Positions 2,591 to 51,225 of a DNA stretch of 64,000 nucleotides are shown here, piece by piece. Within the stretch, counting starts at the first letter, position 1, and the number at the start of each line of letters is the position of its first letter. Below the pieces are notes generated by a model that had not been told where the DNA came from, did not search any database, and was given only the letters and a program-made list of their open reading frames with translations. The DNA comes from Phycisphaerae bacterium (lineage in GTDB: Bacteria; Planctomycetota; Phycisphaerae; WQYP01), in assembly GCA_051955985.1 (NCBI GenBank), contig JBQCGD010000071.1, forward strand, positions 27,036 through 91,035. Direction: 5' to 3'. A program made the translations under genes and the position numbers.

Positions 2591-2667
2591 TCTTGCCGAT
2601 ATTATACGCAGAGGGCCGCGTCGTTCTCGCGGTCCGGGGCATGCACTTTCGGAAATTCGGCGGACCG

Positions 2668-3315: not shown

Positions 3316-3364
3316 AAGCGGTGGAGCGCGGCAGCCGCGTGATCCGCCCCGAAAGGTTTCCCCG

Positions 3365-3721: not shown

Positions 3722-3735
3722 TCGCCCATTCCCGA

Positions 3736-5256: not shown

Positions 5257-5266
5257 GGCCCAACGC

Positions 5267-5692: not shown

Positions 5693-5758
5693 GCCAGAAT
5701 CTTACCCCGCGGCCCCGGCATGGCAACCGGCGTTGGTTTCGAGGGGCGAGGCGCCGGC

Positions 5759-8305: not shown

Positions 8306-8487
8306 GGCGTCCTTCACACAACACAGAACCGCCGCAGTTATCGGCATTTCCAATCCGCGAACATGCTAAACGCATCGGCACTTCCGATGTTGCGGTCCAT
8401 GCGACTGTTCCCCATCCGCAAAAATCACGTTGCCGCCGCATCCAAGTCCTTCCCTCATTCGGCCGATGACACTGGAGAGGTCATTTC

Positions 8488-9270
8488 ATGCTCGATGAAT
8501 CCGCACTTGATATTGAGAATGCCGTTTCGGCCCACCTGATGCGCGAATCGCAGAAGATGGAGGAGGAGCTTCTGCAGGCCCGCGCGGTCCAGCGGTACCT
8601 TCTTCCGCCGGAGGTGCAGGAGCACGCGGGTTTCCGTACGGCGTTCGTGTATCACCCGCTGCACCATGTGGGCGGCGACTTCCTGGATACGCTGCTCCGC
8701 CCCGACGGAAAACTCGTCCTCATGATCGGTGATGTTTCCGGGCACGGCATGGCAGCGGCGCTCAGTTCCGCCATGCTCAAGACGGCGTTTCTCCGCCACG
8801 CCCCCGGCGCGAGCGGCCCGGGTCACCTGCTGTCGCTCATCGACGCGGAGCTCCACAAAACGGTCCGCTTCGGCCGCTTTGTGACTGCCATGATTGCCTG
8901 GTTTGATGTGGCGACAAGGACGCTGACCGTTTCTTCGGCCGGCCATCCGCCTGCACTCCTCATGCGGCGGGGCGAAGTTTCCCGGGTTGAGGCCGAGCCC
9001 CACCTGCCGCTTTTCACCGGGGATGCCGTTGAATACCCCGATGCGCCTGCGATCCAGATGCTGCCCGAGGACCGGCTCCTCCTGATGACCGACGGGGTGC
9101 TCGAAGCGACGCGCTCCTCCGGCGAGATGATCACCACCGACGAAGTGAGCAAGGTGGTCAGTTCCTGCCCGGTCGACGGCAACTTTGCGGCGTGCATCTT
9201 TGAATCGCTTTTCTTTTCCGATCTCGTCTTCAACGACGACGTGAGCCTGCTGGCGCTGGAAGTGAGATAG
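8488..9270 (+). CDS. PP2C-type Ser/Thr phosphatase, SpoIIE/RsbU family
   Basis: GDVSGHG metal-binding signature, LLLMTDG second Asp motif. Confidence 0.7.
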   Translation: MLDESALDIENAVSAHLMRESQKMEEELLQARAVQRYLLPPEVQEHAGFRTAFVYHPLHHVGGDFLDTLLRPDGKLVLMIGDVSGHGMAAALSSAMLKTAFLRHAPGASGPGHLLSLIDAELHKTVRFGRFVTAMIAWFDVATRTLTVSSAGHPPALLMRRGEVSRVEAEPHLPLFTGDAVEYPDAPAIQMLPEDRLLLMTDGVLEATRSSGEMITTDEVSKVVSSCPVDGNFAACIFESLFFSDLVFNDDVSLLALEVR

Positions 9271-9310
9271 CGGGGTACCGTCCGGTGCAATGGCCGGACC
9301 TGTTATCTGT

Positions 9311-10750
9311 TCACTTATCTCGTGGGAGAAACGGCCGCGCGCTCAACGACTTCCCGACCAGCGTGCGTCCCGCCCAGATATCCTTCAACTGCCCCGTCGT
9401 GATCGCCTGAGTCATGATGTTTCCGAGTGCCGTCGCTTCGACGGGCCCGGCGAGCACGCGCAGTCCGGTCGCATCCGCGGCCAATTGATTCAGCAGATGG
9501 TTCTGCGATCCCCCGCCGACGATGTGCAGCACCTTGAACTGCTTGCCGGTGATCTCCTCGAGCATCTTCAGGACGCGTGCATATCCGGCGGCGAGCGATT
9601 CGAGGATGACCCGCACGAATTCCCCATGCGTTTTCGGAATCCGCTGGTTCGTCCGGGTGCACTGCGCGACGATTTTGCCGGGCATGTTTCCGGGCGTGGA
9701 AAACGCGGGGTCCTCCACATCCAGCAGCGCGATGTTTGCATCCGCCGCCTCGGCCATCTGCGTCAGGGTGGCGTAATCGTATTCCGTCCCTTCGCGCTGC
9801 CACTCGCGCCGGCACTCCTGGAGCAGCCAGAGGCCGGCGAGGTTTTTCAGCAGACGGATTTTTCCGCCGACGCCCCCTTCGTTCGTCACGTTGTATTGCG
9901 CCGCTTTCTCGGTAAGCACGGGCTGGTCCGTCTCGGCCCCGAGGAGCGACCACGTGCCGCTGGAAAGGTAGAGCCAGTCACCCTGCGCGGGATTGGCCGG
10001 CACCGCGGCGACGGCGGAGGCGGTGTCGTGACCGCCGACGGCGATGACCGGGACGTTCGACAGCTTTTCATTCACTTGCGGGAGCACGGCGCCGCGGACG
10101 GAATTCTTTTCGCCCGGGATGGAGATCGGCGGGAACAGGGCGGGATCGATGCCGATGGTCTTGAGGACTTCCGGCGACCATTGCCGGGTCCTGGCATCGA
10201 GCATCTGCGACGTGGAGGCGATCGTGTAATCGGTGCCTTTCCGACCGGTGAGGAAATAGGTGACCAAGTCCGGCAGGAAGAGGATGCTCTTGGCCGCGGC
10301 CAACTGCGGCGAATTTCCGAGGGAGAGCGCGGCCATCTGGAAGAGCGTGTTGAGGGACATCGTCTGGATGCCGGTGATGGAGTAGATCTTCTCTTTGGGC
10401 ATCCGCGTGAAGACGGCCTCGACCATGGGTTCGGTCCGCGGGTCGCGATAGCAGACCGGGTTTCCGAGCAACTCTCCGTTGGCGTCGAGCAACCCGAAAT
10501 CCACGCCCCAGGTGTCGACGCCGATGCCGGAAATTTCGTGCCCGCTCGCCCCCTTTGCGATGCCGGTCTTGATCTCGTGCCAGAGGCGCAGGATGTCCCA
10601 ATGGAGGCGTTTTCCGACCTGCACGGAGATGTTGGGGAAGCGATGCAGCTCGGTGAGTTTAATTCCGGCGTCGGAGACGGTCCCGAGCATCACACGACCC
10701 GATTCTGCGCCCAGGTCTATCGCCAGGTAATGTTTCTCACCACTCGCCAT
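9311..10750 (-). CDS. rhaB: rhamnulokinase (FGGY carbohydrate kinase)
   Basis: LAIDLGAESGRVMLG, GIDTWGVDFGLLD, VGGHDTASAV, HIVGGGSQNHLLNQ motifs closely parallel E. coli RhaB. Confidence 0.8.
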   Translation of the reverse strand: MASGEKHYLAIDLGAESGRVMLGTVSDAGIKLTELHRFPNISVQVGKRLHWDILRLWHEIKTGIAKGASGHEISGIGVDTWGVDFGLLDANGELLGNPVCYRDPRTEPMVEAVFTRMPKEKIYSITGIQTMSLNTLFQMAALSLGNSPQLAAAKSILFLPDLVTYFLTGRKGTDYTIASTSQMLDARTRQWSPEVLKTIGIDPALFPPISIPGEKNSVRGAVLPQVNEKLSNVPVIAVGGHDTASAVAAVPANPAQGDWLYLSSGTWSLLGAETDQPVLTEKAAQYNVTNEGGVGGKIRLLKNLAGLWLLQECRREWQREGTEYDYATLTQMAEAADANIALLDVEDPAFSTPGNMPGKIVAQCTRTNQRIPKTHGEFVRVILESLAAGYARVLKMLEEITGKQFKVLHIVGGGSQNHLLNQLAADATGLRVLAGPVEATALGNIMTQAITTGQLKDIWAGRTLVGKSLSARPFLPRDK

Positions 10751-10841
10751 GATTCATTCCTCTCGCAAACGGATGCAGGCCCGATTGTAAGGCAGCGCCC
10801 GCAACTTGAGGAGGGATGGGGGTGTCAGCGGGGTGGTGATT

Positions 10842-11612
10842 TCAGCGTTTTGCCTGCGAGTGCTCGATCAGCCGCTGAACGTGGTCGTCCGGCAGGGCGA
10901 GCGCGCCGCCGCAGCTCTGGGCGGTCACGTAGGCCCGGGCGGCTTTTTGGGTCATGGCGGTCGCGGCGAGCACGGCTTCGGCCGTGGGACCGAGGGCGAT
11001 CATCCCGTGGTTGCCCAGCAGAATCGTCGCGGGTGGTTCGCCGTACTGGTTCATGTAGGTTTCCAGCCGGTACCGCAGTTCCACGGCAAGTGGCAATCCT
11101 GGATCCATGTAGGGGACAAAGAGCGAGCGCGGCCCGCACAACTGCACCTGCTGCGGAAAAAGGCGGACGGTGGCGAACGCTTCCGCCTTTGGGGAGGCCA
11201 TGATTCCGGCGACATAGGTGGGATGGGTGTGGCCGATGAAGCGGATTCCCGGGAGATCGAGGAGGACGGCGTGGAAGAAGGCTTCCTTCGAAGGCATGGG
11301 CGCGTGCGCCGGGCTGGCGGCGTGGAGGCAGTCGACGATGGCTGCGCGGCTGGCATTGGGTTTTCTGGCGACGAGCTGCAGCAGGGGCTCGAAGGTCAGC
11401 GGGACAAAATCGTCTTCCTTGGCTTTCTGGAGGTATTTCCCGGAGGCCTTGAGGAGGAAGGTCTTCCCATCCACTTTTGCCGAGCAGTCCCCTTCGTTGT
11501 GAATCACGTACTCATTGGCCGGATCGCCCAAGGCGTGAGCGAAGGGCAGGAGTTCGGCCACTACAGATCGATGCGGCATTTGCTCGGGTCCCCTAGAGAG
11601 ATGACGGCTCAT
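10842..11612 (-). CDS. class II aldolase/adducin family protein, putative rhamnulose-1-phosphate aldolase
   Basis: HTHP zinc-ligand motif, about 256 aa, immediately downstream of rhaB on same strand; RBS AGGAAGG before ATG 11612; appears as C-terminal part of artefactual 953-aa ORF in the track. Confidence 0.7.
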   Translation of the reverse strand: MSRHLSRGPEQMPHRSVVAELLPFAHALGDPANEYVIHNEGDCSAKVDGKTFLLKASGKYLQKAKEDDFVPLTFEPLLQLVARKPNASRAAIVDCLHAASPAHAPMPSKEAFFHAVLLDLPGIRFIGHTHPTYVAGIMASPKAEAFATVRLFPQQVQLCGPRSLFVPYMDPGLPLAVELRYRLETYMNQYGEPPATILLGNHGMIALGPTAEAVLAATAMTQKAARAYVTAQSCGGALALPDDHVQRLIEHSQAKR

Positions 11613-11792
11613 GATACCTTCCTCCTTTTTCCGGAGCGAACGGGAGGTGGGCGGAAGGAAGCGGCGGAGGGCGATAAAACCGGACTTTGCCGGCTTGCGA
11701 CCTGTGCTCTGCGGAGGCGGCGGCGGGCCGCGGGCAGGCCGTTTCCACCGTTGTGCTGCTTGATCTGCTACAATTGGCCGATGAGGTAAACG

Positions 11793-13556
11793 ATGGCGGC
11801 CTGGCGTGACGACAAAATTCTGGAGCTGGCCACCCAGCTTTCCTACTCTCCCGCGGAAAAGCGGCGGGAGCAGTTGGATGCCGCGATCGATCTCGTTCCC
11901 ACACTGCATCCGGACAAATCGTATCCGTGGGATTTCGTGCATTTTCGAATCACGGGGTTCCAACCGCGCGCGCATTCCGAGCACACGGTGGCGGGGAAGG
12001 TTCTGCTGGCGGACCTTTCCACGCTGATCGAATTTCTTTCGGACACGCTCTCGATCAAGGTGGATGAGCCGCTGGCGGCGGGGGAGAGCGTTTTGTCGAT
12101 GGAAGAGGTGTCGCGCAAGTTTTCGGTGTCGTTGAAGACGATTCAGCGGTGGCGGAAGCAGGGGCTGATCGCGCTGCGGTACATTTATCCGGACGGGCGG
12201 CGGCGGATTGGTTTCCGGGAAGCGGCGGCCGCGCAATTTGCCGCGGCGAACAGGGAGCGGGTGGAGAAGTCGGCGACGTTCAAGCAGCTGTCGGCGGAGG
12301 AACGCCGGCAGATCATCGAGCTTGCCCGGCGTTTCCTGTCGCACGCCGGGGGGGCGCGGCACTCGCTTACGGAGATTGCGCAGCGCATTGCGGAGCGCGT
12401 CGAGCGGAGCCCGGAGACGATCCGCTACACCATCCGGCAGTATGACGCCGATCACCCGGAGGCGGCGCTTTTTCCGGAGAACGGGGAGAGCATTCGCACG
12501 GACCGAAGCGCGGGGGCGGAGCCGGTGGACGGGGGCACGCCGGTCGGCGAGGCGGCGCAGGCCCAGGCGGCATTTGGCGGGAGCGATGCGGAGGAAGCCG
12601 CGGGGCAGCATGCGGAGAAACTTCGTTCGCTGCTGATTCCGTTCGTCCACAACCCGCTGTTCGAGCACCCGGATGCGGACAACATTATCCTGACGGTTTT
12701 GCCTGCCGAGGGGTTGGCCAAGGCGCAGGCGAGCGTGGCGGCGGGTACGAATCCGAAGGCGAACGATGTGCTGATGGCGCGGATGCCGCGGGATCTGCCG
12801 CCGTTTTTGGCCGACATTTTCATGCAGCCGATCATGCCGCAGGAACTGGAGACGGATGCGTTTCGGCGGATGAACTACCTGAAGTTCAAGGCGGCGAAGG
12901 CGCAGGCGATGCTGGCGGGGGAAAATGTCTCGGCCGATGCGGTGGCGGGGCTGGAAGCGCTGCTGGCGCAGGCGAACGAATTGAAGAACCAGCTGGTGCA
13001 GGCGAATCTGCGGGTGGCGGTGCACGTGGCTCGGAAGCACGAGCGGTCGAACCGGCCGTTGATCGAGCTGTTTTCGGATGCAACGGTGTGGCTGATGCGG
13101 GCGGCGGACAATTTTGATTTTGCGCGGGGCGGTTCGGAGCATCATGCGCGGTTTTCGACGTATGCCAGCTATGCAATTATGAAGAATTTCGCGCGGGACC
13201 GGGCGGATCGGCTGGCGGGGCCGGAGGCGCGGGTGCTCACCGGGCAGGAGGAGATTCTCAAGACGGTGGGGGCGCGGGAGCATGCGGCGGAAGCGGAGGC
13301 GCCGGCAAGCAATGCGGAGCTGCTGTCGCTGTTGAAGCAGTTGCCGGCGCGGGACCAGGAGCTGTTGACGCATCATTATGGGCTGAACACCGGGAAGGGG
13401 GAGACGGAGCCGCTGAGCTTGTCGCAAATCGGGGACAAGATGGGGATCACCAAGGCGCGGGTGCGGCAGTTGGAAGTGCGGGCGCTGCGGAAGCTGCGGC
13501 AGTTGCTGGAGACGCGGCGCGAACAGTTGCACCAGGCGACGTCCAAGCACAACTAG
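11793..13556 (+). CDS. RNA polymerase sigma-70 family factor with long N-terminal extension
   Basis: Region 2 (VAVHVARKHERSNRPLIELFSDATVWLMRAADNFD...FSTYASYAIMKNF) and region 4.2 HTH (LSLSQIGDKMGITKARVRQLEVRALRKLR); GAGGTAA RBS. Confidence 0.75.
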   Translation: MAAWRDDKILELATQLSYSPAEKRREQLDAAIDLVPTLHPDKSYPWDFVHFRITGFQPRAHSEHTVAGKVLLADLSTLIEFLSDTLSIKVDEPLAAGESVLSMEEVSRKFSVSLKTIQRWRKQGLIALRYIYPDGRRRIGFREAAAAQFAAANRERVEKSATFKQLSAEERRQIIELARRFLSHAGGARHSLTEIAQRIAERVERSPETIRYTIRQYDADHPEAALFPENGESIRTDRSAGAEPVDGGTPVGEAAQAQAAFGGSDAEEAAGQHAEKLRSLLIPFVHNPLFEHPDADNIILTVLPAEGLAKAQASVAAGTNPKANDVLMARMPRDLPPFLADIFMQPIMPQELETDAFRRMNYLKFKAAKAQAMLAGENVSADAVAGLEALLAQANELKNQLVQANLRVAVHVARKHERSNRPLIELFSDATVWLMRAADNFDFARGGSEHHARFSTYASYAIMKNFARDRADRLAGPEARVLTGQEEILKTVGAREHAAEAEAPASNAELLSLLKQLPARDQELLTHHYGLNTGKGETEPLSLSQIGDKMGITKARVRQLEVRALRKLRQLLETRREQLHQATSKHN

Positions 13557-26797: not shown

Positions 26798-26853
26798 TTT
26801 TGACTGCTTTGGTTGGGTTGGCGTTGACGTGCCGGGGGTGGTGGAGGTACAAG

Positions 26854-26867
26854 GTTCCACGTAGAAC
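26854..26867. promoter_or_regulatory. parS-like palindrome GTTCCACGTAGAAC (copy 2)
   Basis: Identical 14-mer 70 bp downstream of copy 1; 26 bp upstream of parB RBS. Confidence 0.4.
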
Positions 26868-26892
26868 ATTGCCTTGAGAAAGGAGTCTCGTG

Positions 26893-27843
26893 ATGACGTT
26901 GAAGGATCGACCACGGCTTGGGCGGGGGTTGAAGTCGCTTATCTCTACACCTGTCACCGTATCGCCTGCGGGCACGAATGGGTCGCCTACCCCCCCTGCC
27001 GAGAGCGTGCTGGAGACGGGGGAACGGTTGGCGTTGATCCCGGTGGAGGCGATTGATCCGAATCCGCACCAGCCGCGCGCGGCGATGGAGCCGACGGCGT
27101 TGCAGGAGCTGGCGAACTCCATCAAGCAGTCGGGCGTGTTGCAGCCGGTGATTGTGCGGCCGGGGGCACCGGTGAATGGGACGCCGCGGTATGAGCTGGT
27201 GGCGGGGCATCGGCGGACGGAGGCGGCGAAGCTGGCGGGGCTGGCGGTGGTGCCGGCGATTGTGCGGCAGGATACGACGGATGAACGACAGGCGGAGTGG
27301 GCGCTGATCGAGAACATCCAGCGGGAGGATCTCAATGCGATCGAGCGGGCGAAGGCGTACCGGGCGTACGTTGACAAGTTCTCGCTGACACATGGGCAGG
27401 CGGCGGAGCGGCTGGGGGAGGACCGAACAACGATCACGAACTTCCTGCGGCTGCTGGAGTTGAACCCGGGGGTGCAGGACCTGGTGGCGCGGGGGATCTT
27501 GTCGGCGGGGCATGCGAAGGTACTGGCGGGGGTAACGGACAAGGCGAAGCAGGATTCGTTTGCCAACAAGGCAGTGACGGAGGGGTTGAGCGTTCGGAAG
27601 TTGGAGGAGCTGGTGAGCGCCCCCCCCCTGCCCACCGAGACACCTGCAGAGACGACGGTGGCGGCGCATACGCGGACGCTGGCGGCGAAGAGTCCGCATG
27701 TGGTGGAGCTGGAGCAGGATCTTTCGCGGAAGCTGGGGACGAAGCTGCGGATTTTCCCGAGCAAGAAGAAGAACACGGGGAAGATCATGATCCAGTATTT
27801 TTCGCTCGATGAGTTTGACCGGATCGTCGAGAAGTTTAATTGA
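26893..27843 (+). CDS. parB: ParB/Spo0J partition protein
   Basis: LQELANSIKQSGVLQPVIVRP, ELVAGHRRTEAAKLAG (GHRR box), HTH; AAGGAG RBS. Confidence 0.8.
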   Translation: MTLKDRPRLGRGLKSLISTPVTVSPAGTNGSPTPPAESVLETGERLALIPVEAIDPNPHQPRAAMEPTALQELANSIKQSGVLQPVIVRPGAPVNGTPRYELVAGHRRTEAAKLAGLAVVPAIVRQDTTDERQAEWALIENIQREDLNAIERAKAYRAYVDKFSLTHGQAAERLGEDRTTITNFLRLLELNPGVQDLVARGILSAGHAKVLAGVTDKAKQDSFANKAVTEGLSVRKLEELVSAPPLPTETPAETTVAAHTRTLAAKSPHVVELEQDLSRKLGTKLRIFPSKKKNTGKIMIQYFSLDEFDRIVEKFN

Positions 27844-27886
27844 TTTATATATCTGCATATCTATACCACCTTGCAAAAGATCAATT

Positions 27887-27947
27887 GGCCACGAAAGACA
27901 CGAAGGGCACGAAATTGTTTCAGGGTGTGGAGCGGTTTCGTGTCGGA
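27887..27947. repeat. family-A repeat (GCCACGAAAGACACGAAGGGCACGAAATTGTTT...)
   Basis: Intergenic parB/rbsK; shares GCCACGAAAGACAC...CACGAAATT core with copies at 32541 and 37518; internal inverted repeat GACACGAAA...TTTCGTGTC. Confidence 0.5.
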
Positions 27948-27964: not shown

Positions 27965-29092
27965 ATGGCGAAGCGGATCGCCAAACCGGTGAGCAAGCGC
28001 GCGGCGAGGCCGGCGGGCGTGGCGCGTGGCGGGGTGGTGGAGCGCGCCGGGAAGGGGGAGCATTGGGGTGGGGGGGAGGCGAAGAAGCTGGAGGCGTTGC
28101 CGACGGATGCGCCGGGGCGTGCGTCGGTGGCGGGGCCGAAGTCGGGGGTGGGGGTGGTGGGGTCGTTGAACATGGATTTGGTGGTGCGCACGGAGACGAT
28201 GCCGCGGCCGGGGGAGACGGTGCTGGGGCAGGATTTGTTGCAGACTCGGGGGGGGACGGGGGCGAACCAGGCGGCGGCGGCGGGGCGGCTGTGGAACCGG
28301 AAGACGTCGGGGGCGAAGCTGATCGGGCGGATCGGGGAGGATGTTTTCGGGGAGAACATGCTGGTGGCGTTGAACAAGTGCAAGGTGGATGTGACGTCGG
28401 TGTTGAAGACGCGCGGGTCGCCTTCGGGGACGGCGATGATCCTGGTGGATCGGCATGGGGAGAATGCGATCGTGGTGGCGAGCGGGGCGAATCGGCAGTT
28501 GTCGGCGACGGATTTATTGGCGGAGCGGAAGACGATCGAGACGTCGGTGGTGCTGACGGCGCAGCTGGAGGTGCCGCACGATACGGTGGCGTGTGCATTT
28601 GCGTTGGCGCGGCGGTCGAATGTGTTGACGATTCTGGATCCAGCGCCGGCGCCTGCGGAGGGGTTGCCGGAGTCGTTGTATCATGTAGATATCTTGACAC
28701 CTAACCAGATGGAGGCGCAGATCCTGACGGGGATGCCGGTGCGGAATTTGGAGGAGGCGCGGCGTGCGGCGGAGCGGTTCTTGATTCGGGGGACGCGGAT
28801 CGTTGTGATGAAGATGGGGTCGCAGGGGGCGGCGATTGTGCAGAAGGATGAGCGCGGGGTGGAGACGGTGGTGCAGCATGTGACGGGGTATCGGATTCAG
28901 CCGGTGGACACGACGGCGGCGGGGGATGCGTTCACGGGGGCGCTGGCGGTGGGGCTGGCGGAGGGGATGCCGCTGGCGGCGGCGGTGAAGTTTGCGAATG
29001 CGGCGGGGGCGCTGGCGTGTTTGAAGCAGGGGGCGATGGGGGCGATACCGGGGCGCGCGGAGGTGGAGGGGTTTATGGCGGAGAGGGCGTGA
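27965..29092 (+). CDS. rbsK: ribokinase (PfkB family) with about 60-aa basic N-terminal extension
   Basis: VVGSLNMDLVV, GGTGANQAAAAGRL, C-terminal DTTAAGDAFTGALAVG; GAGGGA RBS before ATG 27965. Confidence 0.7.
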   Translation: MAKRIAKPVSKRAARPAGVARGGVVERAGKGEHWGGGEAKKLEALPTDAPGRASVAGPKSGVGVVGSLNMDLVVRTETMPRPGETVLGQDLLQTRGGTGANQAAAAGRLWNRKTSGAKLIGRIGEDVFGENMLVALNKCKVDVTSVLKTRGSPSGTAMILVDRHGENAIVVASGANRQLSATDLLAERKTIETSVVLTAQLEVPHDTVACAFALARRSNVLTILDPAPAPAEGLPESLYHVDILTPNQMEAQILTGMPVRNLEEARRAAERFLIRGTRIVVMKMGSQGAAIVQKDERGVETVVQHVTGYRIQPVDTTAAGDAFTGALAVGLAEGMPLAAAVKFANAAGALACLKQGAMGAIPGRAEVEGFMAERA

Positions 29093-29094
29093 AT

Positions 29095-29152
29095 CCCCCC
29101 CCGACGACGACGTAAACACGAAGGGATGAAGAGATGAAGGGACACGAAGGGG
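29095..29152. repeat. family-B repeat (CCCCCGACGACGACGTAAACACGAAGGGATGAAGAGATGAAGGGACACGAAGGG)
   Basis: Directly after rbsK stop; related to copy at 45927 and shares GAAGGGA/CACGAAG modules with family A. Confidence 0.45.
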
Positions 29153-29200
29153 GTGGGAGGGGGCTTGCTGTTGTTGGCGGGGGGTTCGACTGTTGTGCGA

Positions 29201-29238
29201 GAGGTGCCCGCGTCGCCTGCGGGCGACGGGCGTTGGGG
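29201..29238. repeat. family-C GC-rich palindromic repeat GAGGTGCCCGCGTCGCCTGCGGGCGACGGGCGTTGGGG (copy 1)
   Basis: Contains hairpin GTCGCC-TGCG-GGCGAC; three copies within 1.5 kb. Confidence 0.5.
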
Positions 29239-29266
29239 ATTGGGGTGCTTATCGTTCCTTATTTTG

Positions 29267-29515
29267 CTAGCTCCCGGGTGTATTCCTCAGGCCGACAGCG
29301 CCAATGATGAGCAGGAGAATATTCAGGAGGGCATTCGAACAAGCGACGGCGATGAGGAGGAAGGTGATACGCCTCGCGATGTTGCGCCAGGTGCGTTTGG
29401 TCGGGGCGATTGCCGCTATGCATACAAAGGCTAATTCTCCGATGACGGCCATGTTGCTGACATGGGGCGTTCCCCAGAACATCCAGTAGGGCTTGCATAG
29501 ATCGAGCCACCACAT
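29267..29515 (-). CDS. small membrane protein (low-GC islet)
   Basis: 82 aa, two TM helices, locally AT-richer DNA; weak RBS. Confidence 0.3.
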   Translation of the reverse strand: MWWLDLCKPYWMFWGTPHVSNMAVIGELAFVCIAAIAPTKRTWRNIARRITFLLIAVACSNALLNILLLIIGAVGLRNTPGS

Positions 29516-29775
29516 CAGGTTTGGTCCCTTGTAGAAGAGCTTGAGAGCGAAGCGCTCTGAAGGTTGGGGTGATTCTTTCCGTCCATGGGAAGTGTTGGGG
29601 CTGACCCTACGTCGGGAGCAGTTGCAAGTTCGAGGATAAAACTGTGGCGGGGTGCGTTGACGTTTTGCGGAAAATTCGGGGGGCGACTTGCAGGTGGGAG
29701 AGTCCATGATCCCCACCCCATGGAAGGGGTGGGCTTGTTCTCTAACAAGGTTTAGGCACCCTCGGTGGTCTAAGC

Positions 29776-29810
29776 GTGCCCGCGTCGCCTGCGGGCGACG
29801 GGCGTTGGGG
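29776..29810. repeat. family-C repeat copy 2
   Basis: GTGCCCGCGTCGCCTGCGGGCGACGGGCGTTGGGG. Confidence 0.5.
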
Positions 29811-29870
29811 TTTGTGCGTGGCGGAGGGGGTGGGAATCGGAATAATGGAGGGGAATGAGAAGGAGGTGTT

Positions 29871-30101
29871 ATGCTGGCGGAAGTGTTTGGGTTGGTGGGG
29901 GTGGTGATGGTGGTGTTGACGGGGATCGTCCACATCCTTTTAGCGATGGGTGTGTGGATGGATGCGCATGCGCTGGGGAAAGAAGGGCGGCGGGTGTATC
30001 TGCTTCCGGCGCCGTTGTGGGGGTTGACGACGCTGGTGATGGGGTTGGTGGGGGCGGCGGTGTATTGGGGGATGAATCGGTCGACGTTTCGGCGGGATTG
30101 A
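29871..30101 (+). CDS. small two-TM membrane protein
   Basis: AAGGAGG RBS 7 nt upstream of ATG; 76 aa, two hydrophobic helices. Confidence 0.4.
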   Translation: MLAEVFGLVGVVMVVLTGIVHILLAMGVWMDAHALGKEGRRVYLLPAPLWGLTTLVMGLVGAAVYWGMNRSTFRRD

Positions 30102-30210
30102 ATGCGGGAGATGTTTGTTTTTGAGGATGGGTCGCGCGTGGAATGTCCGTGGCCCTGCGCCGCCCGAGGCGGCGGGCATTGTCGGGGAGCGTGTTTTTTT
30201 GGAGCGAGAA

Positions 30211-30594
30211 ATGGTGGAAGTGTTGCGGGCGGCGTATGCGGCGTTGAATCGGGGGGATGTTGGGGCGGTGGTGGAGGTGTTGGATGCGGGGGTGGAGTGG
30301 ATTGAGCCGGCGGAGGTTGGGGGTGGGCGGCGGTTGCGGGGGGTGGAGGCGGTGACGGCGCATCTGGTGGCGGCGCGGGGGGCGTGGGCGGAGGGGGGGT
30401 GTGAGCCGGAGCGGTTTGTGGTGGCGGGGGAGCGGGTGGTGGTGGTTGTGCGGGTGCGGGTGCGGATGAAGGGGGAGACTCTGTGGCGGGAGGGGCGGGT
30501 GGTGGATGTGTATACTAGTGGCGGGGGGAAGGTGGTGGAGAAGCGGACGTTTATGGAGGAGGGGGAAGCGGTTGCGTGGGCGGGTGGGGCGTGA
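30211..30594 (+). CDS. NTF2-like (SnoaL/ketosteroid-isomerase-like) protein
   Basis: MVEVLRAAYAALNRGDVGAVVEVLDAGVEWIEP... and C-terminal beta-rich VVVVVRVRVRMKGETLWREGRVVDVYT typical of this fold. Confidence 0.45.
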   Translation: MVEVLRAAYAALNRGDVGAVVEVLDAGVEWIEPAEVGGGRRLRGVEAVTAHLVAARGAWAEGGCEPERFVVAGERVVVVVRVRVRMKGETLWREGRVVDVYTSGGGKVVEKRTFMEEGEAVAWAGGA

Positions 30595-30616
30595 GGGGCG
30601 GGTCGGGCTGTTTATG

Positions 30617-30660
30617 AGAGGTGCCCGCGTCGCCTGCGGGCGACGGGCGTCGGGCGTCGG
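30617..30660. repeat. family-C repeat copy 3
   Basis: GAGAGGTGCCCGCGTCGCCTGCGGGCGACGGGCGTCGGGCGTCGG. Confidence 0.5.
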
Positions 30661-30676
30661 GGGGAGAGGGGGTGGG

Positions 30677-31351
30677 TCAGGAGACGACGGATTGTTTTGG
30701 TTTTTGTAGGAGGGGGTCGGCGAGTTGGGCGGCGCGGAAGGCGCGGAGGCGGCGGGCGCAGGCGGGGCAGCTCATGCAGGGGAATTCGAGGTTCATCTGG
30801 CAGGACCAGCTTGCGGCGAAGGGGGCGGCCATCTGGTAGCCGAGCTCGATGACCTGCTGGTCTTCGAGGCCCATGAGGGGAGTCTTGAGGGTGAGGGGGG
30901 TTTCGGTGGAATAGAGGTCGAGGAGCTGGTTGAAGATCTGGACGAGTTCGATGTTGCGGGCGAGGGCGTCGGCTTGTTTTTGGTCGAGCTGGGCGCCCCA
31001 GATGAGGACGGAGGCGTGGATCTGGCGGGCGAAGCCGGCGCCGATGGTGAGGAGCTGGAGGTCGCGGAGGGGGATGAGGTTGGAGTAGGGGTCTGAGCCG
31101 GTGGAATGGACGACGCCGGCGGTTTCGGGGGGCCAGCTCATTTGACGGAGGTGTTGAGCGTCGATGGCCCAGGAGCGGAAGGGTTTGAAGTGGGCGACTT
31201 GTTTGTCGAAGGCGTTGGCGGCCTGGGCTTCGGGGGCGCGGGCGTCGCGGAGGTGGAGGAGGGCGATGCGGTATTCGCGGGAGGCGAGCGCGGCGGCGAC
31301 GAGGCTGTGGAGTCCGCCGGAGGAGAGGATGAGGGCGATGGCTTTGGGCAT
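30677..31351 (-). CDS. queC: 7-cyano-7-deazaguanine synthase
   Basis: PP-loop LSSGGLHS (SGGxDS), C-terminal zinc cysteines CQMNLEFPCMSCPAC. Confidence 0.75.
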   Translation of the reverse strand: MPKAIALILSSGGLHSLVAAALASREYRIALLHLRDARAPEAQAANAFDKQVAHFKPFRSWAIDAQHLRQMSWPPETAGVVHSTGSDPYSNLIPLRDLQLLTIGAGFARQIHASVLIWGAQLDQKQADALARNIELVQIFNQLLDLYSTETPLTLKTPLMGLEDQQVIELGYQMAAPFAASWSCQMNLEFPCMSCPACARRLRAFRAAQLADPLLQKPKQSVVS

Positions 31352-32540: not shown

Positions 32541-32612
32541 TTGAAGGGATTCGCAGCGGATAAATTAGCCACGAAAGACACTAAAGACACGAAATTTTTA
32601 CTGGTGGTGTGG
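32541..32612. repeat. family-A repeat (TTGAAGGGA...TAAATTAGCCACGAAAGACACTAAAGACACGAAATTTTT)
   Basis: Between ADH gene start and HEAT-lipoprotein stop. Confidence 0.5.
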
Positions 32613-35026: not shown

Positions 35027-35381
35027 CCAGACACCTTTAGAGGCCCAGTGAAGCTGCAGGGGGGCAGCGCGGGGGGAAATCGTGGGCAGGGTCTGGGGGT
35101 GGCGCGAAGCGCTGGAGCCGCCGTCCTTGCGTGGGCAGCACCAGCGGATGGCGATATCACCAGTCGCCTGCGAAGGTTACTGTATCGCGACGAAAAGGCG
35201 GACGCAATCAGAAAAGGGAACACTGGGAAGGCGAAGGAGGGGCGGACGGCCAAGAAATCAGTGGGAACGGTGTTGCGAAGACAGCCCCCTTTTCTGCTAT
35301 AGTTGGTGGTCCTTCAAGGACTTTGGCGGGTTCGTTCACCGCTAGATTGCCAATGGAACGATGTTCGCAGGAGAAACCGTG

Positions 35382-36239
35382 ATGGTTACCCGCCGAGGTT
35401 TCGCGCGCCGTGGGTTTACGCTCATCGAGCTGTTGGTCGTGGTGGCAATCATCGCGGTGTTGATTGCGATCCTGTTACCGTCGTTGGGGAAGGCGCGCGA
35501 GCAAGCGCGGATGACCCATTGTGCCAGCGGGATGAGACAGTGGGGAATTGCGCTCCAATACTATCTCAATGATTACGCGCAGGCGATGCCGCTGGAGGGC
35601 TCCACGAGTGCGCCCAGCGCCTCCAATCCAAATTTCATGGATGGGGGGAATTGGTTTAATGCGTTGCCTGACTACGTAAATGCCCCGCGTTACTACCTTC
35701 TCTATGCGGGATACAGTGCGCGGGTGGGGACGACCGTGACAGATTCCAACGGGACGGTGTGGACGATCACGAACGGCGGGCAGAACGGGGGCGGGTACAA
35801 GAATGCGTGGATCTGGTACTGTCAATCGCAACTGCAGAAGACCAAGAATTCCACTTCGGGCTTAAATTCGTTTCATTATGCGATGAATGGTGTACTGGAC
35901 GGGGCGGGGAGCAGCGGCACATGGGGCGGCGATTTGGGACAAATGTATGTGAAAGTAACAAGCATGGATGATCCGGCCTCGACGGTGTTTCTGTTCGAGC
36001 CGACGGGGAACAATCCCAACGATGTTCCCTCGAGCTCAACAGCGGCGGGTCTCGCGAGCAACATCGACGTGAAGCGACACAACGGCGCTGCGAACATCAA
36101 CTTTGTGGATGGTCATCAAGAAACGATTCGGCAAACGATCATGACGCCGAGCCGGCCGAACTCTTCGGCGGTGTGGACTTCAACGGCGCCGCGGCTGGTC
36201 TGGGGGCCGTTCAGCGGGCCGAAGCGCCCGGGGACCTGA
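35382..36239 (+). CDS. prepilin-type N-terminal cleavage/methylation domain protein with C-terminal H-X9-DG (DUF1559) motif, paralog 1
   Basis: [25 protein letters not shown]; C-terminal [13 protein letters not shown]. Confidence 0.7.
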
Positions 36240-36360: not shown

Positions 36361-37497
36361 ATGAAAGTTCTGATCAATCGCGCCGCGCTGGTGGAAGCCC
36401 TCGGCCTTGCTTCTTCTGTGGTTCTTTCGCGGACGCCGAAGCCGGTGTTGACGTGTGTGAAGCTGGTGGCGGGGACGGGGGCGGGCGGGACGGGGGCGAA
36501 GACGCTGACGGTGGTGGCGACGGACATGGAGCTGGCGCTGCAATACACGCTGACGCAGGTGGATATTGCGACGCCGGGGGTTGCGTTGATTCCGGCGGGG
36601 AAGCTTTCGGAGATTGTGAACAATTCGCCGGACGATACGCTGACGCTGGACACGAACCAGGACACGACAGCGATCAAGGGGTCGGATGCGCAGTACAAGG
36701 TGTTCGGGTACAACCCGGAGGAATTTCCGCCGGTGTCGTCGTTTGACGGGTCGCCGGACTTTTCGCTGACGGCGGGGAGCCTGCGGCAGCTGCTGGACCG
36801 GACGCGGTTTGCGGCGGCGCGCGAGATGACGCGGTATGCGATCAACGGCGTGCTGTTTGAGAAGAAGGGGAAGAAGCTGTCGCTGGTGGCGACGGACGGG
36901 CACCGGCTGGCACAGACGAAGGATGACACGATTTCGGAAGGGGGGAAGGATGTGTCGGCGGTGGTGCCGATCAAGGCAATCAACCTGATTGAGCGGCTGC
37001 TGACGGATCCGGAGCAGACGGTGTCGCTGCAGTTCAAGGAAAACAAGCTGTTTGTGCAGATCAGCTCGGAGACGGGGGGCGTGAGTGCGACGATGTCGAC
37101 ATCGCTGGTGGAGGGGACGTTCCCGCCGTACGGGGATGTGATTCCGAAGGATTCGGACAAGAAGGTGACGTTGAACCGGGAGCGGTTTTTCTCGGCGGTG
37201 CGGCGTGCGGCGTTGCTCACGAACGAGGAATCGAAGGGGGTGCGGCTGGCGTTTTCGAGCGGGACGTTGTCGATTTCTTCGCGGGCGCCGGAGATGGGCG
37301 AAGCGAAGATTGATCTGCCGATCGAATATGCAGGGGATGCGATTGAGATCGGGTTCAATCCGACGTATCTGCTGGACGCGTTGAAGGTGGCGGATCAGGA
37401 GACGGTGACGTTTGAGATGAAGACGCCGAACAAGCCGGGGCTGCTCAAAAGCGGTCCGGGGTTCTTGTATGTGGTGATGCCGGTGAATCTCAGCTGA
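36361..37497 (+). CDS. dnaN: DNA polymerase III beta sliding clamp
   Basis: MKVLINRAALVEALGL...three-domain clamp pattern, about 378 aa. Confidence 0.85.
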   Translation: MKVLINRAALVEALGLASSVVLSRTPKPVLTCVKLVAGTGAGGTGAKTLTVVATDMELALQYTLTQVDIATPGVALIPAGKLSEIVNNSPDDTLTLDTNQDTTAIKGSDAQYKVFGYNPEEFPPVSSFDGSPDFSLTAGSLRQLLDRTRFAAAREMTRYAINGVLFEKKGKKLSLVATDGHRLAQTKDDTISEGGKDVSAVVPIKAINLIERLLTDPEQTVSLQFKENKLFVQISSETGGVSATMSTSLVEGTFPPYGDVIPKDSDKKVTLNRERFFSAVRRAALLTNEESKGVRLAFSSGTLSISSRAPEMGEAKIDLPIEYAGDAIEIGFNPTYLLDALKVADQETVTFEMKTPNKPGLLKSGPGFLYVVMPVNLS

Positions 37498-37517: not shown

Positions 37518-37580
37518 ATTGAAGGGACGTAAATGAGCCACGAAAGACACTAAAGACACGAAATTGTTTTACGTTTTTTT
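37518..37580. repeat. family-A repeat (TTGAAGGGACGTAAATGAGCCACGAAAGACACTAAAGACACGAAATTGTTTT)
   Basis: Between dnaN and dciA; 37/38 identical to copy at 32563..32600. Confidence 0.5.
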
Positions 37581-37611: not shown

Positions 37612-38082
37612 ATGATCGTGGGTTTTATGCCTCCCCGCAAAAAGAATAACGGCCAGAAGCCGGCCGCGCGCTCGAACGCGCCTTCGCCTGAGAACATCTC
37701 AAACCTGGAGATGCGGGGGGATCGGCTGAAGGTGTTTTCGCTGCAGACCCTGCTGACGAACAAGAAGAGCAAGGAGACGCGGGAGACTGCGAAGCTGGGG
37801 GAGGTGTTGTTGCCGTGGTTTGAGAAGATGGTGGAGAAGCCGGCAGAGAAGATGGAGGGGGTGCTGGAGCTGTGGATGGAGCTGGCGCCGCCAAATCTGA
37901 AGGAGCGTGCGCGGCTGGTGAGTTTTCAGCGGGGGACGCTGACGATCGCGGTGGAGTCGGCGACGGTGCGGGCGGAGCTGGATGGGCAGTTGCGGCAGGG
38001 GCTTTTGCGGAAGCTGCAGATGGGGTCGAAGGGGGCGATTTTTCGTATCAAGACATCGGTGCAGCCCTTACGGGAGATGTGA
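37612..38082 (+). CDS. dciA: DUF721 family protein, candidate DciA-type helicase loader
   Basis: C-terminal LELWMELAPPNLKERARLVSFQRGTLTIAVESATVRAELDGQLRQGLLRKL matches DUF721 hydrophobic pattern; immediately downstream of dnaN. Confidence 0.5.
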   Translation: MIVGFMPPRKKNNGQKPAARSNAPSPENISNLEMRGDRLKVFSLQTLLTNKKSKETRETAKLGEVLLPWFEKMVEKPAEKMEGVLELWMELAPPNLKERARLVSFQRGTLTIAVESATVRAELDGQLRQGLLRKLQMGSKGAIFRIKTSVQPLREM

Positions 38083-43203: not shown

Positions 43204-43240
43204 CATGCTTCTGACCACCGAGGTTGTGGTCAGAAGCATG
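43204..43240. promoter_or_regulatory. perfect 15-bp inverted repeat CATGCTTCTGACCAC-N7-GTGGTCAGAAGCATG upstream of pyc
   Basis: Perfect palindrome arms; candidate operator or RNA hairpin. Confidence 0.4.
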
Positions 43241-44350: not shown

Positions 44351-45742
44351 TCAGCGGCGCATGGACTGGTGGCCGCGGCCGGCCTGGATGTTGGCGCCGC
44401 CGCCGTCGTTGTGGAAAGCGGGGGCGGGGGCGTTGTGGGGCTGGGCGGGCGCGGGGGTGGGGCGGGAGATGGGGGCGGGCGCGGGGGAAGGATGGGGGAG
44501 ACCTTCGACGGGGCGGCGGTTGTAGGCGCTGGTGGGGGGGCTGACGAAGTTGCCGCCGCGTTGGGGTTCAAAGCGTGGGGGTTGTGCGGGGCGGGATGGT
44601 TCGCTGGGGCGCGGCTGTTCGGTGGGGCGGTGCTGTTCGGGGCGTGGGGCTTCGACGGGGCGATGTTCCTGGGGGCGGGGTTGTTCGATCGGGCGATGTT
44701 CCTGCGGGCGCGGCTGTTCGATGGGGCGATGTTCTTCGGGGCGCGGGGCGGGGTGATTGGGGATGCCGATGACGGGGCGTTCGGGGGCGCGTTGGCGTTC
44801 TTCGGGGCGGTAGGGCTGGTGGACATTGAAAGCGTCGTGGTGGTTGCGATCGCCGTTGTTCCAGCCGGGGCCGCGGCGGTCGGGGGTGCGGTCGTTGCGA
44901 TGATCGCGGTCGGGGAAGTTGTGGGGGATGATAATGGGGCGTCCGGGGTTGTGGCGCCATTCGCGGAGGTGTTCATCGCGGTCGCGGCGATCGCGGTCGT
45001 GCCAGTCGCGGTCCCAGTGGACGCCTTCGTTGACGTGGTGGGCGCGCCAATCCCAGTCAAGGTTGAGCCACGGACCGATGCCGTAATGGGGACCGAAGGT
45101 GATGATGGGGCCACTGGGGTAGTAGGGGGGGCGGGAATAAACGAGGCCGGGGTCGTACTGGGGGACGTAGATGATGTTGGGCTGAGCGGGGAGGATTTCG
45201 ATGATGCCGTTGTCGTTGACGACCTGCTGCTGGGGCGTGGTGGCGAGGGTGTTGGCGGCGAGGGCTTCGCTGCGGAGCTGCTGGACGGTGTTCATGACAT
45301 CCTGGGGCTGGTTGGCGAAGGCGGCGCCGAGGGCGGCGGTCCAGTCGGGCTGGGTGGCGAGCATGTTGAGCACGGCGGGGTAGTGGAGAAGGGCCTGGAC
45401 GGAGGGGTCCCAGGGTTGGGCGGCGATATCGTCTTCGGAGGGGTTGGGGAAGTACTGGATCCATTCCTGGGCGGAGGCGATGTCCTGGGGGTAGGTGGCG
45501 GCGGCGAGAATCTGGGTAAGGAGGGGGTCGGGGTAAAGGGCGATGGGGCCGAGGAGCTGGCGGAGCTGATCGGCGGAGTAGGTGGGCACGGCGGGGGCGG
45601 TGGGGTAGGCGGGGACGGGTGGGGAGGTGTAATAGGCGCCGTTTTCCCCGGGGGTGTAGTAATAGGTCTGGGCGACGGCGGCGGAGGCGGCCAGGCCGAC
45701 GGAGGAAAGTGCGGCGATGAGCAAAGAATGTGAGCGTTTCAT
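44351..45742 (-). CDS. DUF3300-like secreted protein with Pro/His/Arg-rich repetitive C-terminus
   Basis: Signal peptide MKRSHSLLIAALSSVGLAASAAVA, GAGGTG RBS; DUF3300 genes are typically adjacent to DUF2950 genes. Confidence 0.55.
   Translation of the reverse strand: MKRSHSLLIAALSSVGLAASAAVAQTYYYTPGENGAYYTSPPVPAYPTAPAVPTYSADQLRQLLGPIALYPDPLLTQILAAATYPQDIASAQEWIQYFPNPSEDDIAAQPWDPSVQALLHYPAVLNMLATQPDWTAALGAAFANQPQDVMNTVQQLRSEALAANTLATTPQQQVVNDNGIIEILPAQPNIIYVPQYDPGLVYSRPPYYPSGPIITFGPHYGIGPWLNLDWDWRAHHVNEGVHWDRDWHDRDRRDRDEHLREWRHNPGRPIIIPHNFPDRDHRNDRTPDRRGPGWNNGDRNHHDAFNVHQPYRPEERQRAPERPVIGIPNHPAPRPEEHRPIEQPRPQEHRPIEQPRPQEHRPVEAPRPEQHRPTEQPRPSEPSRPAQPPRFEPQRGGNFVSPPTSAYNRRPVEGLPHPSPAPAPISRPTPAPAQPHNAPAPAFHNDGGGANIQAGRGHQSMRR
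44640..44760 (-). repeat. 33-nt tandem coding repeat (x4) in DUF3300 gene
   Basis: GGGCGATGTTCCTGGGGGCGGGGTTGTTCGATC-like units encoding EHRPIEQPRPQ x4. Confidence 0.6.
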
Positions 45743-45926: not shown

Positions 45927-45982
45927 GCCCCCGACGACGTAATCACGAAGAGATGAAGGGACGAAGGACCACGAAGAATGCC
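45927..45982. repeat. family-B repeat (CCCCCGACGACGTAATCACGAAGAGATGAAGGGACGAAGGACCACGAAG)
   Basis: In divergent intergenic region between DUF3300 gene and crtC-like gene. Confidence 0.45.
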
Positions 45983-49649: not shown

Positions 49650-49940
49650 GGGAATCTCCATTCGCAAACGCGGCATCCTGCCGGGGGAACAGGTGGGGAT
49701 TGTAGCAGATCGGGGCGGGGGAAGGTGATCTTCGGGTGCGCCGGATGGCCCAAAGAGAGGCAAAAAGTGCACCGGTTTTGGCTCTAAATGCAAGTCTTCC
49801 ACATTGTAAGAACCCGGTGAGAGGCATAAGTTGGGGGCATCGCTTTTCCGCGGAGCGACTCTTCATTTCACCGGCGCGGACGAGACAGCGCTTCGTCACA
49901 TTTCTTTGCAGGCTGGCCCGACGTCTATTTGGAGGTTGGT

Positions 49941-50801
49941 ATGCAGATCCGGAAACGGGCATTTACGCTCATCGAGTTGTTGGTGGTAGTGGCGATCATC
50001 GCCGTGCTCATCGCGATTCTCCTGCCGTCGCTGGGCAAAGCGCGGGACCGGGCGAAGACGACGGTGTGCGCGGGGAACCTGCGTTCATGGAACCAGGTGA
50101 TGACCATCTATCAGAGTTTGTACGACGGGTACCAGGTGCCGTGCCGGATGTATTCGGGAAGTGCGACGAACTGGGGATGGTACGGTGCAAGTTTGATAGG
50201 ACCGTCGATGGGTCTGAACGTGACGAGCAGCAGTTCGAGCCAGTCGGCGACGAACCCGGGGTGGGCGCGGGACAAGATCTTGTCGATGCTGATGTGTCCG
50301 GCGGTGGTTCACCCGGACAACGTGCATCCGAAGGGGTGGTATGGCGGGTACACGTACAACCAGACGATGGGATACGGTCTGACCAAGGAGTCGGACGCCA
50401 ATGCTCACATGAAGCTGCAGTGGCAGGGCGTGAGCACGAACTATCCGGACGGCTGGAAGCCGGTGAAGCGGGATCTGCTGCCGCGGCATCAGCTCATCAT
50501 GATGGACGTGCGGAACATGACGAAGACGACGAGCGACAGCGACAATGCGTTTGCGAAGTTCACGGGGAGTTCGACGAACCTGTTGCCGCCGAACGGGACG
50601 GACCAGACGACGAACAAGGATGAAGCGGGGACGCCGCACTCGGATGGGAAGAAGGCGAACATGCTGTTTGCGGACGGGCAGGTGGTGTGTGACGATCCGC
50701 TGAAGATGTGGCCGGACATGAAGAACAACGCGACGAAGAAGGACTGGATTGTCGATCGGATGGTGGAGCCGACGGCAACGAACGCCGGCTTCCCATATTG
50801 A
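49941..50801 (+). CDS. prepilin-type N-terminal + H-X9-DG protein, paralog 2
   Basis: [39 protein letters not shown]; C-terminal [15 protein letters not shown]. Confidence 0.7.
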
Positions 50802-50858: not shown

Positions 50859-51225
50859 TTCGGTATGTCGTGGGGGGTGGCCCCGCGAGCGAAGAATCAT
50901 AAGAAAGACTTAAGAGGAATTGGAACTATGGAGGGAGGGACGCGCGGGAGATCGGCGGAGAGGGAAGAACGTGCAGTATTCGGCGGGTTTTTGCAGGGGA
51001 TGGGGGGAGCGCTGCGCACTTTTGGCGGCGGAGATTGCACAAAACGGAGGCGAAAAGTGTACGTATTTTGGCCCTAAGTGCAATCTTTGCCCATTGTAAC
51101 AATGGCGATAGAGAACTAAGTTCAGTATGTCGCTTCTCCGCGGAGCGAACGTCAATTCATAACGCGGAAAAAGAGCACCTGGACGAAGTTGTTTTCAGTC
51201 GGTGCGGCGTACATTCGGAGGTTGT

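Follow-up and report, generated by a model that had tools for sequence, protein, structure and literature searches.

A rare GC-rich hairpin repeat at junctions of gene content between rbsK and queC in a Phycisphaerae genome: a possible recombination joint

Between the genes rbsK and queC of a Phycisphaerae bacterium (Planctomycetota; Phycisphaerae; WQYP01), an islet of small genes carries several copies of a short palindromic repeat, referred to here as family C. The repeat was studied in a stretch of 64,000 nt (the window; NCBI GenBank assembly GCA_051955985.1, contig JBQCGD010000071.1, positions 27,036 to 91,035 of the forward strand), to which all coordinates refer unless another contig is named. 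In our reading, to which we assign a probability of about 0.4, the hairpin core of this repeat could be a recombination joint, used by a trans-acting enzyme to insert DNA. This reading is favoured by the direct orientation and exactness of the copies, their low number, the bracketing of foreign DNA, the coincidence with synteny breakpoints, the position of another copy at a prophage border, and the conservation of the core relative to its arm. We infer recombination at the core from features that are themselves observed, namely the identity and orientation of the repeats, the differences in synteny, the foreign composition of one segment, and the core-versus-arm conservation.

The 30-mer core GTGCCCGCGTCGCCTGCGGGCGACGGGCGT is present in three exact copies in the window (29204-29233, 29776-29805, and 30621-30650), all of them on the plus strand, and no further match at up to three mismatches is found elsewhere in the 64 kb, the chance expectation being 0. 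These copies had been described as near-identical in the first-pass annotation of this DNA, with starts that were 3-4 nt off since they included the flanking GAG(AG). The exact identity extends over 30-35 nt: a 5′ extension, GAGAG, is common to C1 and C3, and a 3′ extension, TGGGG, to C1 and C2, which are identical over 35 nt. The three direct copies fall within 1.45 kb and all family-C copies are intergenic. The repeat length falls within the 28-37 nt of CRISPR repeats, but the spacings of 572 and 845 nt, with genes lying between, do not fit a CRISPR array, in which spacers are about as long as the repeats. The family-C features are the following:

29147 to 29238, plus strand: C1, the full element, with a left arm of about 57 nt, the core at 29204-29233, and TGGGG.
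29776 to 29810, plus strand: C2, the exact core and TGGGG without the left arm; upstream it bears no relation to the other copies.
30593 to 30661, plus strand: C3, with a partial left arm of about 20-28 nt, the core at 30621-30650, and a tail of CGGGCGT repeated 3.6 times in tandem.
30151 to 30190, plus strand: C′, a possible diverged family-C hairpin, GCCC tgc GCCGCC cga GGCGGC GGGC ... GTCGGGG.

The repeat is rare. When one genome for each of 185,579 species was scanned for a 24-nt core, a single other copy was found, in the metagenome-assembled genome (MAG) of an uncultured member of the Phycisphaerales (L001). A looser pattern gave two matches in JGI metagenome contigs, which have different loops, unrelated flanks, and no strand skew and are attributed to chance, while IMG/VR contigs contain no match to the core. 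Covariance-model searches with the filters off, covering the window and 85 kb of related loci, returned nothing beyond C′, and the other 62 kb of the window hold no copy. An ordinary, abundant repetitive extragenic palindromic (REP) element, one of the outcomes that the first-pass annotation had named as undoing its proposal, is not what these searches suggest: there is one true match in 185,579 species genomes and none in the JGI metagenome or IMG/VR contigs. As far as these searches can see, family C appears to be a low-copy, discrete, and lineage-specific element.

The copy in L001 is situated 117 nt past the stop codon of a gene for an HTH and S24 CI-like repressor (6e-16); a host-type secretin gene has its stop 80 nt away, and a canonical bidirectional terminator lies at a distance of 25 nt. 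The block on the repressor side also encodes a large terminase (PHROG 8e-19) and a ParB-like nuclease (2e-15). Family C is thus found, in both genomes where it is known, at a junction of blocks of different ancestry. The prophage-like block of L001 occupies positions 470-7344 of that contig, includes an ASCH gene as well, and has a skew as extreme as that of the host, so either the block is old or the phages of this lineage share the bias of their hosts. No relatives of its terminase were found in IMG/VR.

The recurrence of a 35-47-nt element in an independent MAG, from another project, together with the ordered way in which the flanks of the three copies differ, makes an assembly artefact or a local duplication without biological role unlikely, the least probable of the explanations weighed here. 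According to such an explanation, the 30-35-mers would come from mis-joined metagenomic contigs or from recent slippage. The source of the window is indeed a MAG, and an independent Logan contig of SRR31762002, 99.2% identical, ends at 30679 by the queC stop, just outside the right edge of C3. However, the flanking genes are intact on either side and keep their synteny with relatives, and the Logan break lies 29 nt from the repeated k-mers, so the repeat is not its explanation. This Logan contig (L004) is equivalent to window positions 31986-30679, and its end may reflect population heterogeneity or a drop of coverage in G-runs.

Comparison of the copies gives the anatomy of the element. At full length (about 95 nt) it consists of a loosely conserved left arm and a strictly conserved bulged GC hairpin of 30-35 nt, and its right end is sharp, a few bases past the hairpin. 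Upstream of the core, C1 and the L001 copy are identical at 36 of 60 positions at the same offset (p ~1e-4), and C1 and C3 at 28 of 60 (p = 0.013); the upstream flank of C2 has no similarity to the arms of the other copies. Since the left arm is common to C1, C3, and L001 and missing in C2, the left edge of C2 looks like a breakpoint placed exactly at the core. An additional argument for a split unit, from the 11-mer GAGGGGGTGGG downstream of both C2 and C3, was dropped as evidence: the motif has only two occurrences in the window, the flank alignments are not significant, and in L001 it lies upstream of the core. The core itself is identical at 30 of 30 positions between the two genomes while the adjoining arm agrees at 36 of 60, which argues for constraint on the sequence of the core. 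All five copies, including C′ and the one in L001, are on the G-rich strand. In this genome, the third codon positions read on the plus strand are 0.6-0.8 G and 0.01-0.2 C, whichever strand the gene is on; because the C-rich half of the palindrome is intact in every copy although the genome strips C from that strand, recognition by a protein is suggested, rather than the mere keeping of a stem.

The core folds as a short imperfect palindrome, a bulged hairpin of the form GCCC / GC bulge / GTCGCC-TGCG-GGCGAC / GGGC. The inner hairpin had been recognized from the beginning; it extends, across a 2-nt bulge, to an outer GCCC/GGGC stem, giving stems of 6 bp and 4 bp. As read from the sequence, the layout is that of a recombinase core site, in which a centre of 4-8 nt lies between imperfect inverted arms, each about 11-13 nt long and two in number. 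On the minus strand the fold exceeds that of shuffled sequences (z = -2.1 to -2.9). This last property is among those that favour a close rival of the recombination joint, a tentative but serious one: a REP-like structural hairpin, copied into intergenic DNA and kept for ending or stabilizing transcripts where few other stable stems can form, the mRNAs of this genome being G-rich or C-rich, with its position at junctions being incidental or the result of occasional homologous recombination between copies. The element is palindromic and strictly intergenic, as such a hairpin should be, and C1, C3, and the L001 copy are located between convergent gene ends. The same genome already re-uses another hairpin, family A, as a 3′-end module, with five copies directly past minus-strand stops, and C′, if a true member, would hold a compensatory change (T-A to C-G) that preserves the stem. 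On the other hand, a stem-loop is present but the tails (GUUGGGG on the plus strand and CACCUCUC on the minus strand) contain no U-tract on either strand, and a terminator scan raised no flag. Furthermore, C2 is placed between divergent gene starts, and the bidirectional terminator beside the L001 copy implies that the hairpin is not needed there for termination. The copies are clustered rather than dispersed, the exact conservation of the core sequence is not expected of a pure stem-loop, and all copies are direct, with no inverted pairs of the REPIN type.

The family-A hairpin, GCCGACGGGGGCGTCGGC(C/T)CCAC, is dispersed through the window at 1676, 16676, 19418, 39558, and 43265, on the plus strand and in one orientation; some of its copies have a T-run on the minus strand, and it looks like a re-used terminator module.

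The other features of the interval and of its flanks, with aa standing for amino acids and ORF for open reading frame, are:

27965 to 29092, plus strand: rbsK, ribokinase, the conserved left flank (PfkB 1e-62; TIGR02152 at 305 bits against a cutoff of 299.65; 94% aa identity to a fragment in L007).
29098 to 29150, plus strand: a family-B repeat, GACGACGTAAACACGAAG..ATGAAG..CACGAAGG, belonging to a separate dispersed intergenic family (siblings at 45933-45978 and at L001 5498-5543).
29239 to 29775: a compositionally foreign segment between C1 and C2 (composition computed over 29234-29775).
29267 to 29515, minus strand: an 82-aa ORF for a two-transmembrane protein, unannotated in the source MAG, possibly a real or a decaying gene.
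29712 to 29733, plus strand: an 8-bp GC hairpin, CCCACCCC ATGGAA GGGGTGGG, inside the foreign segment.
29871 to 30101, plus strand: the gene of a 76-aa two-transmembrane protein, annotated in the source MAG (P0120, ACTHN5_08800; G at third codon positions, G3, 0.74).
30211 to 30594, plus strand: a 127-aa SnoaL_2/NTF2-like gene (SnoaL_2 2e-13; NTF2-like matches in PDB), in the place of PMT_2 in relatives.
30677 to 31351, minus strand: queC, the conserved right flank (QueC Pfam 5e-23; 119 homologues).

The gene identities proposed in the first-pass annotation hold for ribokinase, above the TIGR02152 cutoff, for QueC, and for the SnoaL_2/NTF2-like protein. Both small membrane proteins have two hydrophobic segments each, as had been stated, the ribosome-binding site AAGGAGG of the 76-aa gene is found at 29860-29866, 4 nt ahead of its ATG, and the family-B repeat does stand beside the first family-C copy.

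The comparison of the rbsK–queC interval across genomes, which the same annotation had proposed, was carried out with four relatives:

L005 (QueC 83%): rbsK forward, PMT_2 reverse, queC reverse.
L007 (RbsK 94%): rbsK forward, 81-aa gene forward, PMT_2 reverse, queC reverse.
L008 (RbsK fragment, 78% nt): rbsK forward, 81-aa gene forward, then the contig end.
L011 (QueC 67%): parB-rbsK ... CMD, HD/PilZ ... queC.

The relatives with the same flanks present four different gene sets between rbsK and queC, and family C is found in none of the relatives; in more distant genomes rbsK no longer adjoins queC. Since the relatives keep both flanking genes and differ in the content between them, the interval is a small and long-standing variable slot. 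It lies in an otherwise conserved, origin-proximal core region that comprises parB, rbsK, queC, rnc, dnaN, and dciA.

Two differences separate the window from its relatives: there are about 780 nt extra between rbsK and the 76-aa gene, and the SnoaL gene, not present in the loci of the relatives, stands where they have PMT_2. At the DNA level, homology to L007 and L008 breaks off where rbsK ends, picks up inside the 76-aa gene at 29902-29907, and lasts until the end of that gene at 30101; with L007 there is homology once more in queC. Both stretches that lack homology have a C-type hairpin within 26-111 nt of either border, C1 and C2 in the first case, C′ and C3 in the second. The homologues of the 76-aa protein are encoded by the 81-aa genes of L007 and L008 (74% and 66% identity, with the C-terminal 25 residues nearly invariant), which begin about 30 nt downstream of rbsK; from this position, the 76-aa gene is native to the locus and syntenic with rbsK. 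The idea that the repeats separate the genes from one another stands in part, since there is no exact repeat between the 76-aa gene and the SnoaL gene, where the insecure hairpin at 30151-30190 is the only candidate. C′ has the same fold architecture as the family-C core, and its local alignment with C1, including the compensatory stem change, has p = 0.003; under a covariance model built without it, it scores only 14.5 bits (E 0.14).

The DNA between the first two copies stands out in its composition. The segment 29234-29775 (542 nt) has a GC content of 0.557, against a mean of 0.634 for the window, and a skew of 0.205, which jointly place it among the lowest 0.14% of the 540-nt windows between 12 and 56 kb. 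No other segment departs from the host in both GC content and strand skew, and this one is bounded exactly by C1 and C2. It has no counterpart in L005, L007, or L008 and no match in plasmid or phage collections. The whole islet had been regarded as AT-rich, a description that is true of this segment and not of the 76-aa gene (GC 0.615) or the SnoaL gene (0.703). In the same way, the view of the islet as a remnant of horizontally acquired DNA survives for these 542 nt, one third of the islet; the SnoaL and 76-aa genes are fully ameliorated and are not recent imports from an unskewed donor.

The 82-aa ORF inside the segment has codon periodicity (GC3 0.73) and a weak strand signature, with C3 of 0.48 and G3 of 0.25 compared with 0.77 and 0.08 for queC and ADH, and a third-position skew of 0.31 compared with 0.76-0.98 for its neighbours. 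Thus, although the two hydrophobic segments first ascribed to it are there, its standing as a gene is less certain: besides its absence from the source annotation, no credible homologue was found in protein searches of 5.8 billion sequences and 1.84 billion cluster representatives. A word-indexed search gave no match, and a full HMMER search gave only three multi-stretch matches, judged to be compositional. PHROGs, PADLOC, and NCBIfam returned nothing, and a match to the Pfam family Phage_holin_2 was not significant (E 0.054). Its origin as a relic of the PMT_2 gene of the relatives has been ruled out, as tblastn detected no PMT_2 relic anywhere in the window. An opposite-strand ORF of 61 aa looks like a shadow of the 82-aa ORF, since the third codon positions of the two coincide and its translation abounds in Met and Arg. 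From its composition, we read the 542-nt segment as comparatively recent foreign DNA that may carry an orphan, possibly decaying, membrane-protein gene. The extreme third-position G bias on one strand would serve here as an internal clock, by which half-ameliorated DNA, such as the segment of the 82-aa ORF, becomes recognizable and roughly datable.

As a working scheme for the recombination joint, the core would be similar to an att site or to a transposon end and would be recognized by an enzyme whose gene lies elsewhere. The foreign 542 nt, which include the 82-aa ORF, would have entered by recombination at a core, leaving one core on each side, after which C1 would keep the left arm of the element and C2 the core only. 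The SnoaL gene, bounded by C′ and C3, would have taken the place of the PMT_2 gene of the relatives, and the native 76-aa gene would be left stranded between two insertions. The islet would then consist of a few insertions or replacements stacked in a variable slot. Candidates for the enzyme are a tyrosine or serine recombinase, or a hairpin-binding HUH/Y1 transposase of the IS200/IS605-RAYT type.

Several observations weigh against such a scheme. As had been noted from the sequence, no integrase, recombinase, or transposase is found, by a Pfam scan, in the islet or among 20 neighbouring genes. The downstream flanks show no significant similarity between any copies, the right flanks of C2 and C3 included. 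The membership of C′ in family C is possible but not statistically secure. Not all the DNA between copies is cargo, since the 76-aa gene is native, and the SnoaL gene, with a third-position skew of 0.98, bears the extreme strand signature of the host in full. The source MAG of L001 has one exact core only, which leaves the prophage-like block without a partner att site, and the left arm faces the phage side in L001 but the outside of the foreign segment in the window, so that a simple attL/attR arrangement does not fit both. Finally, the sample is tiny: one genome contributes 64 kb and the other 8 kb.

Another way of reading the same layout is an integron-like cassette array without an integrase, of the CALIN type (cluster of attC sites lacking integron-integrases), in which family C would be the equivalent of attC and each small gene a cassette. 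The earlier description of the islet as cassette-like is fair as far as the layout is concerned: the genes are small, one of them is an orphan, and each is bordered by the same hairpin in one orientation. It does not extend to integron membership, which we consider very improbable. The tail GTTGGGG, past the hairpin in C1 and C2, resembles the R′ box GTTRRRY of attC, and the hairpin has extrahelical bases; however, no RYYYAAC box complementary to this tail precedes the hairpin, the stem has only 10 bp, and the site measures 30-50 nt while attC sites measure 57-141 nt. In addition, the 82-aa ORF is reversed in orientation, the 76-aa gene is native, no IntI-type gene is present among the neighbours scanned, and Rfam gives no match.

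If the recombination joint is real, it would mark where uncultured soil planctomycetes take up and swap small genes, and the hairpin sequence would offer a simple way of finding such sites in other genomes. If family C is only a REP-like stem-loop, the locus would be an ordinary variable spot. A bolder version, which we hold to be improbable, is that the hairpin is the site of an undescribed integrase-in-trans gene-capture system of the Phycisphaerae. This system would be functionally similar to integrons or to IS200/IS605 elements, with a much shorter, sequence-conserved bulged hairpin; acting on the strand that is single-stranded in replication, it would stack small cassettes (an orphan membrane protein, a SnoaL protein) at an origin-proximal slot and at prophage borders.

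The strand bias used above extends over a large part of the window, of which it is the most striking feature, and may be far more interesting than the islet. The GC skew, (G-C)/(G+C), is extreme and independent of gene strand, reaching 0.25-0.47 in 2-kb windows across 11800-56600. On the left this domain begins abruptly near 11.8 kb, on the right it fades out near 57 kb, and the skew of its flanks (2600-11800 and 57000-64000) is near 0. The third-position skew is 0.5-0.98 for most genes on either strand; codons end in G in plus-strand genes (G3 up to 0.81, C3 down to 0.01) and in C in minus-strand genes. The same skew is observed in L001 over positions 1-8000 (0.32-0.60). In the relative whose RbsK is 94% identical at the amino-acid level, the third positions are only 40% identical: 75 of 113 C3 sites of its rbsK are G in the window, and 111 of 159 G3 sites of its queC, which is a minus-strand gene, are C in the window. 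Both site changes amount to C-to-G on the plus strand, and the skew of this relative at the locus has the opposite sign. In the literature available to us, a search on extreme GC skew in Phycisphaerae or other bacteria found nothing relevant. The window is origin-proximal, as indicated by a parS-like palindrome, TGTTCTACGTGGAACC (26853-26868, three mismatches to the consensus), just upstream of parB (26890-27843), and by dnaN and dciA (36361-37497 and 37612-38082) 9 kb from parB; yet all around dnaN the GC skew keeps its sign.

Other repeats are present in the window as well. Family B comprises two subtypes of short units of the ACGAA(A/G)G type, common to the window and to the L001 MAG. One of them, GCCACGAAAGACAC(G/T)AA(G/A)G(G/A)CACGAAATTGTT, occurs at 27885-27920, 32567-32600, and 37537-37570, and the other, GACGACGTAA(A/T)CACGAAG..ATGAAG..CACGAAG, is the one found beside C1 and at its two sibling sites. 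A perfect hairpin with a 15-bp stem, CATGCTTCTGACCAC ... GTGGTCAGAAGCATG, is intergenic at 43204-43240, and near it there is a tandem repeat with an 18-nt period (44560-44750). Three paralogous pilin-like genes (35361-36239, 49929-50801, and 51202-52086) have an N-terminal methylation motif, with a weak DUF1559 match in one of them, and a common 148-nt repeat of 64-82% identity. Their third-position skew, 0.22-0.40, is much weaker than that of their neighbours, which suggests that they were recently duplicated or acquired.

Among the known systems with which family C can be compared, some candidates have been set aside. The core is unrelated to parS, a 16-bp palindrome of the TGTTNCACGTGAAACA type, and Rfam has nothing at E up to 1 that would make it a known RNA family, such as a preQ1 riboswitch near queC or domain V of a group II intron. 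REP and REPIN sequences are short GC-rich imperfect palindromes, extragenic and often located at the 3′ ends of genes (PMC3116915, PMC3337134). Family C resembles these elements, which are mobilized by RAYTs (Y1 transposases of the IS200/IS605 type), in being a short GC-rich extragenic palindrome, in having a lineage-conserved sequence, as if recognized by a protein, and in the possible hairpin on one strand. As far as can be seen, it differs in number and arrangement: REPs are dispersed in tens to hundreds of copies and REPINs form inverted pairs, whereas family C has three or four direct copies in 1.5 kb, all on the plus strand, and one in another genome. No Y1_Tnp (RAYT) match was obtained among the 20 neighbouring genes, in a search that covered only 64 kb.

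The attachment sites of integrative elements and decayed prophage remnants (attL/attR) offer another parallel, in that identical direct repeats of 30-35 nt flank a foreign segment, the copy number is low, and a second copy is at a prophage-like edge. The differences are that no integrase is found nearby, that the insert is only 542 nt, that there are three or four copies rather than two, and that the pattern of arm sharing is unlike a simple attB x attP product. A tRNA-derived att site has been rejected, as the site is not a tRNA gene.

Non-autonomous elements of the IS200/IS605 type have hairpins near their ends, make no target duplication, and act on the strand that is single-stranded at the replication fork. 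Here too, similar hairpins lie near both ends in direct orientation, a long arm precedes the left hairpin, the right end is a few nt past the right hairpin, no target duplication is evident, and all copies occupy the strand that should be single-stranded there. By this resemblance, such a layout would suit the element, but no TnpA or TnpB is found, and C3, the putative right end, keeps part of the left arm.

Integron cassettes of the CALIN type and the pdif (Xer) modules of Acinetobacter plasmids share with the islet the presence of modules of one or two genes, delimited by a recurring palindrome that resembles a recombination site, with no recombinase inside. In addition to the differences from attC given above, family C is unlike dif, whose layout is 11-6-11, and its copies are all direct, in contrast to the alternating orientations of pdif sites. 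Chromosomal hotspots of gene turnover, in turn, have conserved flanks, as parB-rbsK and queC-ADH are here, and cargos that differ between relatives; they usually have no recurring element at the cargo borders, whereas in this slot a specific hairpin marks the borders. Taken in this company, family C belongs, as a new and rare member, to the broad class of intergenic palindromes tied to genome plasticity.

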